This document shows, piece by piece, positions 28,249 through 28,434 of a DNA stretch of 64,000 bases; positions within the stretch are counted from its first letter, which is position 1, and every line of letters starts with the position of its first letter. Source of the DNA: Pseudomonas phage phi9_PA9. The notes under the pieces are model-generated. The model had not been told where the DNA came from. It did no database searches and worked only from the letters and a program-made list of their open reading frames with translations. The stretch is from the sequence record PQ093904.1, one strand, 5' to 3'. The translations under genes were made by a program, and so were the position numbers.

Positions 28249-28434
28249 TTAATCCCTTTGTTTGGGTTCCCCAGTCATGTACCGAAGAGTTAAATTGAGT
28301 GTATGGACACCAACACTGAATGCCAGTCGACCATCGGCATGTATATATGCAATACGTTTCTTAAAGAAAGCATCTGTTTCAGCGATAGCTTCCTCTGAAT
28401 AAACTGCGTTAAATGATACAGTGTCTCCGTCAAA
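28249..28434 (-). CDS. RNAP beta' N-fragment, exon 2 (61 aa, FDGDTVSFNAVYSEEAIAE...YMTGEPKQRD)
   Basis: frame after intron terminal G encodes FDGD + ~QMAVHVPLTLEAQLE homolog; stop TAA 2 nt before beta start. Confidence 0.75.
   Translation of the reverse strand, partial: FDGDTVSFNAVYSEEAIAETDAFFKKRIAYIHADGRLAFSVGVHTLNLTLRYMTGEPKQRD

Follow-up and report, generated by a model that had tools for sequence, protein, structure and literature searches.

Organization of the polymerase locus

The sequence analysed here (hereafter the window) is a stretch of 64,000 nucleotides (nt) from Pseudomonas phage phi9_PA9 (PQ093904.1). It contains a gene for the beta' N-subunit of the virion RNA polymerase (RNAP), which is divided into two coding segments, exon 1 and exon 2, with a group I intron and a homing endonuclease gene lying between them. 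Our analysis concerned exon 2, the short segment 28249..28434, and its predicted joining to the remainder of the gene.

The DNA source of the window is a phiKZ-like Pseudomonas phage. The 3.2-kb region shares 98.8% identity with PhiPizzaParty and 97.4% with phiKZ, and the phiKZ equivalents of its three open reading frames (ORFs) are PHIKZ180, PHIKZ179 and PHIKZ178. Exon 2 is read from the minus strand, as is every gene surrounding it. Features of the locus are given below in order of their transcription, together with the evidence used for their assignment.

29878..31347, minus strand: exon 1 of the virion RNAP beta' N-subunit gene, PHIKZ180 equivalent (ORF list; phiKZ identity of 97.4%; PHROG 2986 match)
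28435..29877, minus strand: group I intron of 1443 nt, starting with UAA and ending with G (Rfam match; boundaries compared with the intron-less PA7 allele)
29827..29855, minus strand: 10-bp hairpin (GUUAUCCUAU/AUAGGAUAAC) over the Shine-Dalgarno sequence of the endonuclease gene (minimum free energy (MFE) fold of -14.5 kcal/mol, z = -2.5)
28749..29822, minus strand: HNH homing endonuclease gene, 357 amino acids (aa), PHIKZ179 equivalent (Pfam; PHROG 59; I-HmuI homology)
28765..28770, minus strand: proposed internal guide sequence AAGUCC (inferred from MFE folds of loci L003 and L008 and from conservation)
28743..28764, minus strand: P2 hairpin (ACAUAUUC/GAAUAUGU) (fold; 8 of 8 pairs with compensatory changes across relatives)
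28485..28806, minus strand: ribozyme core, Rfam Intron_gpI, P2-P9 (covariance-model match in Rfam; covariation)
28435..28484, minus strand: 3' terminal part of the intron with two hairpins (P9.1/P9.2-like) and a tail to the terminal G 28435 (fold of -13.8 kcal/mol, z = -2.5; compensatory changes in helices 21 and 22)
28249..28434, minus strand: exon 2, 61 codons (FDGD...KQRD) and TAA (translation; contiguous in intron-less alleles; proportions of synonymous and non-synonymous differences, pS and pN)
23891..28246, minus strand: beta-like subunit gene, PHIKZ178 equivalent, 1451 aa (ORF list; PHROG 3148, 1936 bits; phiKZ annotation)

Exon 2 and the predicted junction

The exon 1 ORF (31347..29875) codes for 490 aa, has the C-terminus ...SILAPLGAD and is closed by TAA immediately after it. 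Translation of the minus strand from 28434 to 28249 gives FDGDTVSFNAVYSEEAIAETDAFFKKRIAYIHADGRLAFSVGVHTLNLTLRYMTGEPKQRD followed by a stop; peptides contained in this sequence include IAYIHADGR and LAFSVGVHTLNLTLR. Exon 2 is missing from the ORF list because its frame is closed by a TAA at a distance of eight codons upstream and contains none of the starts ATG, GTG and TTG ahead of Met54. At its distal end, the stop codon TAA (28251..28249) is separated by 'tc', a gap of 2 nt, from the ATG at 28246 that opens the gp178 homolog. When exons 1 and 2 are joined, they make up 1656 nt coding for 551 aa, with ...LGADFDGDTV... at the junction, and it is only in this joined form that the catalytic motif (N/G)ADFDGD is intact. 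Both exons share the same genomic frame, the length of the 1443-nt insert being a multiple of three.

At this base composition, a run of 61 open codons is expected by chance with a frequency of about 1.5%; we regard homology, not open-frame length, as the decisive evidence for exon 2. Between the window and phiKZ, PA7 or fMGyn-Pae01, exon 2 differs by 3-4 synonymous and 0-1 non-synonymous changes (pS 0.07-0.10, pN 0-0.007), and in comparison with a relative of 61% identity pS reaches 0.80 and pN 0.29. Neither frameshifts nor stops were found in exon 2 in the six loci compared. Judged from these substitutions, exon 2 is under purifying selection.

Exon 2 might also be translated separately as a 61-aa polypeptide, in which case the polymerase would be put together from 490-aa and 61-aa pieces with no RNA splicing involved. 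Assembly from split subunits is already typical of jumbo-phage RNAPs (PMC7598289), one transcript survey contains no spliced reads (PMC10914365), and some records annotate the equivalent piece of gp55 as a 61-aa protein of its own. Nevertheless, the reading frame, stopped 8 codons upstream and devoid of the three start codons before codon 54, has no ribosome-binding site either. Moreover, an intact covarying ribozyme with canonical U and G boundaries is situated exactly between the two pieces, and all intron-less relatives possess one continuous protein. Separate translation is for these reasons highly improbable, and exon 2 is treated below as the terminal exon of a spliced gene.

A Shine-Dalgarno-like site of the gp178 homolog, AAGGGA (28258..28253, minus strand), is embedded in the final codons of exon 2 and precedes the ATG by 6 nt. 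This position suggests that translation of the two polymerase subunits is coupled.

Group I intron and its ribozyme

Rfam scan of the whole window returned a single match, Intron_gpI (RF00028), at 28806..28485 on the minus strand. The match is untruncated, extends over model positions 1-253 of 253 and scores 93.4 bits, compared with a gathering score of 50 (E 1e-22). Exon 1 closes with U (29878) and the intron with G (28435, omega G), in agreement with both boundary rules of group I introns. Shifting the junction by one base in either direction violates one of these U/G rules or alters the product. The UAA with which the intron begins is shared by all four intron lineages examined at this site (window, 29875..29877; L003, i.e. 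fMGyn-Pae01, 3021..3023; L006, 5468..5470; L008, 5522..5524). Because this UAA is in frame, unspliced mRNA terminates exactly at the 5' splice site and yields the 490-aa product only.

To describe conservation of the ribozyme, an alignment of six introns was constructed, consisting of those of the window, phiKZ and fMGyn-Pae01, the paralogous intron of phage 6B and two metagenomic relatives, with host proteins sharing 61% and 50% identity with that of the window. RNAalifold detected compensatory double changes in 45 of 92 pairs. In a subsequent recount, two doubtful helices were dropped and P7 was added as a pseudoknot. Paired cells then amounted to 94.3%, compared with 35-40% in controls with partners slid by 1-3 columns. 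Double changes were found in 44 of 89 pairs, compared with 2-13 in the slid controls, and none of 500 shuffles reached the observed values; these covariation figures are somewhat inflated, as the six aligned sequences also served to derive the structure, but the margin is large. The pattern indicates that ribozyme helices are kept by compensatory substitution and that the ribozyme is maintained by selection.

The two strands of P7, GACUA (28591..28587) and UAGUC (28512..28508), are invariant in all six sequences. Between P7 and P3' there are two extra hairpins of P7.1/P7.2-like appearance; judged from the alignment, they resemble the corresponding elements of subgroup IA phage introns. In the proposed P1 helix, the exon 1/intron sequence GGAU/U (the slash denotes the splice site, here and below) pairs with AAGUCC (28770..28765), with a U.G wobble at the 5' splice site. 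The same pairing is present in unconstrained MFE folds of the ORF-less introns of L003 and L008, and AAGUCC is kept in all five introns found at the insertion site. GGAU/U with AAGUCC is therefore predicted as the likely P1. Another candidate guide, AUCC in the ribosome-binding-site hairpin upstream of the endonuclease ORF, gives U-A, not U.G, at the splice site, and AAGUCC was preferred.

An insert of 1443 nt, divisible by three and flanked by exons in the same genomic frame, might in principle be removed by protein splicing as an intein or be passed over by ribosomal bypassing, instead of being spliced out of the RNA. This is contradicted by the stop codon with which the insert opens and by more in-frame stops inside it, as well as by the endonuclease ORF, which is in a different frame. 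The domains detected by Pfam were HNH_3 and, weakly, NUMOD1, with no Hint/intein domain among them, and the insert contains a group I ribozyme. We know of no precedent for bypass of 1.4 kb. Both routes are considered exceedingly improbable, and removal of the insert by ribozyme-mediated RNA splicing is the preferred reading.

Presence and absence of the intron among relatives

Distribution of the intron was examined in 43 phiKZ-like records. The intron occurs together with the endonuclease gene in 6 of them and as an ORF-less form in 2, and about 35 records are intron-less. OMKO1 and fMGyn-Pae01 match 70% of the region, and intron-less records match its exon parts only. In fMGyn-Pae01 (L003, 3021..3501), and likewise in OMKO1, the same intron is found at the same site with a length of 481 nt, a deletion of about 962 nt having left nine endonuclease codons; the core of this intron still scores 88 bits by Rfam. 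Such presence/absence polymorphism at one precise site among close relatives is expected for a mobile element. Near-identical phages show the empty site, the intron with the endonuclease gene and the intron without that gene, so that all three stages of the homing cycle are visible among them.

In phage PA7, the sequence ...ggggcggat ttcgacggggac... is uninterrupted and matches the predicted ligation product. The annotated coding sequence of PA7 is continuous (1656 nt, 551 aa, 99% identical) and ends 2 nt before the next gene; its protein is the predicted spliced product save for a few substitutions. Six-frame search of 50,697 phage records for the junction-spanning peptide revealed that it is contiguous in 127 of them, and these records span Pseudomonas, Erwinia, Serratia, Klebsiella, Ralstonia and other jumbo phages.

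A preliminary description of 28249..28434, made from the letters of the window, had proposed that this segment is an exon of 61 aa, that joining it to exon 1 completes DFDGD, and that it stops 2 nt ahead of the ATG of the beta-like gene. Re-translation of 28434..28249 returned the identical peptide, correct to the base, and the position of the stop is as seen in the sequence. The status of an exon is borne out by the full-length RF00028 intron between the coding pieces, with correct U and G boundaries. As for DFDGD, the joined sequence is the same as the uninterrupted allele of PA7 and of about 35 other phiKZ-like genomes.

DFDGD is lacking in 34 of the 120 best homolog clusters (28%; among P0038-P0116), whose sequences stop at G(A/G)D or a few residues after it. 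Four loci coding for such cut-off proteins were fetched. Two of them, divergent metagenomic relatives with protein identity of 61% and 50%, were readable, and both contain a group I intron at the identical GAT/TTT bond, followed by an FDGD exon of 60-61 codons. Metagenomic loci L007 and L009 are uninformative in this respect; they end ahead of any exon 2 position, and Rfam detected no intron in the sequence covered. The cut-off clusters point to a family-wide intron hot-spot, and to systematic truncation of these proteins in public protein databases. A subset of cut-off clusters ends with GADF, which corresponds to interruption after the F codon. In the distant relative L008 (metagenome contig MDTC01055271.1), besides the intron at the DFDGD site, another group I intron (58 bits) at 7680..8069 divides the beta-like gene downstream into calls of 534 aa and 813 aa.

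The same truncation in 34 of 120 clusters, along with an annotated PHIKZ180 product that is without FDGD, could also be taken as a sign of a broken gene. The endonuclease cassette would in that case have disrupted gp180, exon 2 would be decaying, and a truncated or other catalytic subunit would be used. Decay is at variance with the mostly synonymous changes in exon 2, both among close phages (3-4 against 0-1) and at 61% identity, where pS of 0.80 stands against pN of 0.29. The same exon follows introns in distant relatives, and the ribozyme is conserved through compensatory change. Furthermore, the window phage and phiKZ are viable, and early transcription relies on the enzyme (PMC10612078). 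Disruption of the gene is accordingly given very little credence.

The predicted spliced product as a beta' N subunit

No match was obtained in Pfam for exon 1, the spliced protein or the beta-like protein. The family is too divergent for Pfam, and PHROGs and a custom profile were therefore used. PHROG 2986 ('RNA polymerase beta subunit') aligns residues 1-544 of the spliced protein with profile positions 1-538 of 539 (753 bits), across the junction 490/491. Search of 5.8 billion proteins retrieved 855 homologs, most of the top ones being 550 aa long with query coverage of 100%. In an alignment of 44 homologs, residues D490, F491, D492, G493 and D494 are invariant.

Comparison of the homolog profile with PDB identified beta' N of the AR9 non-virion RNAP (7S00/7S01 chain d, E ~1e-15). 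Profile positions 476-545 align with residues 447-516 of Escherichia coli beta', an alignment that crosses the junction and extends from ahead of NADFDGD through the LGLYY(I/M)T-like segment. LTLRYMT of the spliced protein is aligned with LGLYYIT of bacterial beta' 8dkc_D. Single-sequence PDB search gave a marginal match to plant Pol V over the motif (E 0.21) and was superseded by the profile search.

AlphaFold model of the spliced protein has a mean predicted local distance difference test score (pLDDT) of 79. Foldseek search with this model produced 589 matches at E <= 0.001, and the 50 best of the 589 are all RNAP beta' or largest-subunit chains. AR9 beta' N is the top match (E 1e-15), and both AR9 and bacterial beta' are found at a probability of 1.00. 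Template modelling scores are low (~0.3), because domains are arranged differently in the isolated model.

Among full-length homologs, 86 clusters end 58-71 residues past the motif start (mode of 64), and one outlier runs for 370. From these lengths, the short C-terminus, soon after the double-psi beta-barrel, is a family feature (split beta') and not a truncation artefact. Two further statements of the preliminary description are in line with these results. Continuation of the beta' alignment through LTLRYMT agrees with the profile alignment to E. coli beta', and the view of the product (about 551 aa) as a deliberately truncated beta' N fragment of the phiKZ/AR9-type split agrees with the ends of the 86 clusters and with the best PDB matches, which are AR9 beta' N and bacterial beta'.

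Endonuclease gene and neighbouring features

The 357-aa product encoded within the intron contains Pfam domain HNH_3 (6.5e-9; 35.7 bits, cut-off of 24.8), along with a weak NUMOD1 match. It also matches PHROG 59 'HNH endonuclease' (4e-31) and the I-HmuI structure, PDB 1U3E (E 2e-8). The endonuclease ORF is placed in the P1 loop, and its last codons pass through the guide sequence into P2, which contains the stop codon UGA (28751..28749). Owing to this overlap, ribosomes translating the endonuclease should compete with ribozyme folding. The Shine-Dalgarno sequence of the gene, AGGA (29834..29831), lies in the 3' arm of the 10-bp hairpin, a related form of which is retained in the ORF-less variant L003. 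Judged from its position, the hairpin over AGGA probably damps translation of the endonuclease in a regulatory role.

Further upstream, exon 1 is preceded by a divergent ORF of 2241 aa, the equivalent of PHIKZ181. No tRNA genes were found within the window.

Proposed splicing and homing

Taken together, these data lead us to propose that the virion RNAP beta' N gene is interrupted by a mobile self-splicing group I intron between the D and F codons of GADFDGD, and that splicing gives rise to a 551-aa protein. We estimate the probability of this reading at roughly 0.93. Exon 1, the intron, exon 2 and the gp178 homolog would be carried by a single pre-mRNA. The intron RNA would fold as a group I ribozyme, in which the guide AAGUCC would pair with the end of exon 1, GGAU/U. 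Guanosine would then attack after U29878, and the freed exon 1 would in turn attack after G28435, so that ligation would join GAU to UUU. Translation of the spliced mRNA would yield a protein of 551 aa in which the Mg-binding loop DFDGD is intact and which ends in the manner of phage beta' N subunits. The I-HmuI-like HNH endonuclease presumably nicks or cuts the intron-less allele of co-infecting relatives, which would result in homing. The analysis shows the anatomy of the sequence, agreement of the predicted junction with natural intron-less alleles, conservation and covariation of the ribozyme, and homology and fold of the spliced protein; from these we infer that splicing takes place in vivo, how P1 pairs in detail, what the endonuclease targets and that the hairpin damps its translation.

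Several observations weigh against this interpretation. First, pLDDT falls below 50 at residues 489-494, across the junction; low values are expected for an isolated catalytic loop, and the model does not itself validate the junction. Second, assignment of P1 draws on conservation and MFE folds, with no covariation within the insertion site. Third, exon 2 and the guide region could form a weak P10 of 2 bp at most, and P10 is unsupported. The last point concerns transcripts. Putzeys et al. (2024), citing Mesyanzhinov et al. (2002), refer to gp56, gp72 and gp179 as predicted group I intron endonucleases, and full-length ONT-cappable-seq of phiKZ gave no sign of splicing at any of the three corresponding predicted introns under the conditions used (PMC10914365). 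Coming from one transcript survey, this null result is absence of evidence. Splicing might be inefficient or conditional, which would account for a survey without spliced reads; in that event, production of competent virion polymerase would be gated by ribozyme activity.

Significance of the predicted spliced gene

The feature is an ordinary mobile group I intron, already described in phiKZ-type phages, and not a new kind of element. According to a 2024 study of 201phi2-1, introns of gp55 and gp180 had been revealed by earlier work (PMC11512511). In the scheme of virion RNAP subunits of SPN3US, phiKZ and 201phi2-1 presented by Thomas et al. (2016, Fig. 7), introns and a homing nuclease are marked (PMC5105663). 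A 2025 preprint characterizes gp72 and gp179 as intron-encoded homing endonucleases within RNA polymerase operons, deletion of which is viable (PMC12676376). Antonova et al. (2023) attribute DFDGD to Gp180, which is reported to be packaged in the phiKZ virion and required for early transcription (PMC10612078); going by the reading frames, this attribution would be true of the spliced product only. The term 'hidden', applied to exon 2 in the preliminary description, is thus appropriate with respect to database annotation but not with respect to knowledge, as the gp179/gp180 intron of phiKZ is already in the literature.

A gap remains in database annotation. In phiKZ RefSeq (NC_004629), no feature is annotated over the exon 2 equivalent, and in the GenBank record the tblastn match at this place falls under 'none'. 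RefSeq and GenBank entries of phiKZ, as well as about a quarter of related clusters, list a 490-aa protein without the Mg-binding triad, and the real product would have 551 aa. The spliced sequence is needed for modelling, expression or knock-down of gp180 and for proteomic databases.

The locus is a textbook example of an essential gene whose most conserved codons harbour a mobile group I intron, and the phiKZ group offers a convenient natural system for intron-mediated phage competition. One may speculate further that the D/F bond of DFDGD is a recurrent intron hot-spot in nucleus-forming jumbo phages and that, within the genus, the gp179-type endonuclease is a weapon for competing with the ~80% of phiKZ-like phages without the intron. 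We regard this combined proposal, including the inefficient or conditional splicing considered above, as rather unlikely.

Comparison with known systems

Likeness to AR9 concerns the protein. Similarly to the predicted spliced product, AR9 beta' N (7S00/7S01 chain d) is a stand-alone beta' N fragment that ends soon past the catalytic loop. In contrast to the window protein, with which it shares ~14% identity, it has DYDGD in place of DFDGD and belongs to a non-virion enzyme, and no intron has been reported at its site.

The intron itself can be compared with that of the DNA polymerase gene of Bacillus phage SPO1, which codes for I-HmuI. In both cases, a group I intron with an HNH endonuclease resides in an essential polymerase gene. 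Host gene and ORF position differ, the window ORF being inserted in the P1 loop, where it runs into the guide sequence and P2. I-HmuI is known to nick, and the window endonuclease is likened to it by homology.

In PhiPA3, another nucleus-forming Pseudomonas jumbo phage, a group I intron with the HNH endonuclease gp210 interrupts the virion RNAP beta gene gp211/209 directly after the codons of catalytic aspartates (Birkholz et al. 2024, PMC11620839). Association with catalytic aspartates of the virion RNAP is common to both phages, yet the site is different, as the PhiPA3 intron is inserted in beta (gp178 equivalent) and not in beta' N. The endonucleases are distant, with 31% identity over 58% of the query. 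For gp210, nicking and a competitive advantage were shown experimentally (PMC11620839), whereas the endonuclease of the window is known from its sequence. The gp178 homolog of the window keeps an uninterrupted EHDDPKR site (GATGAC; 25032..25037, minus strand; codons 1071-1072), and a base equivalent to A3215, the target of PhiPA3 gp210, is found at this site. By this comparison, the window phage carries an intron-less and presumably sensitive allele at a second hot-spot.

A closer counterpart is the gp55/gp56 intron of phage 6B (L004, 700..3542, by the nuclear shell gene). It interrupts the same motif in a paralog, the beta' N gene of the non-virion RNAP; its core shares 86% identity with the core of the window intron, and its 3' end is nearly the same. 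The layout, consisting of exon 1, endonuclease, ribozyme and exon 2 of 61 codons, is also shared. Differences are found in the insertion site, which is 6 nt further upstream (APN/ADFDGD compared with GAD/FDGD), and in the endonuclease, with identity of ~20%. Exon 2 of 6B gp55 (186 nt) is annotated as a separate hypothetical protein of 61 aa.

The closest system is the phiKZ locus gp180/gp179/gp178 itself (NC_004629, 186111..189311). It has the same exon 1, an endonuclease ORF that is 98% identical at the amino acid level and an intron core with 98.7% identity, so that the window and phiKZ loci are distinguished by point differences only.

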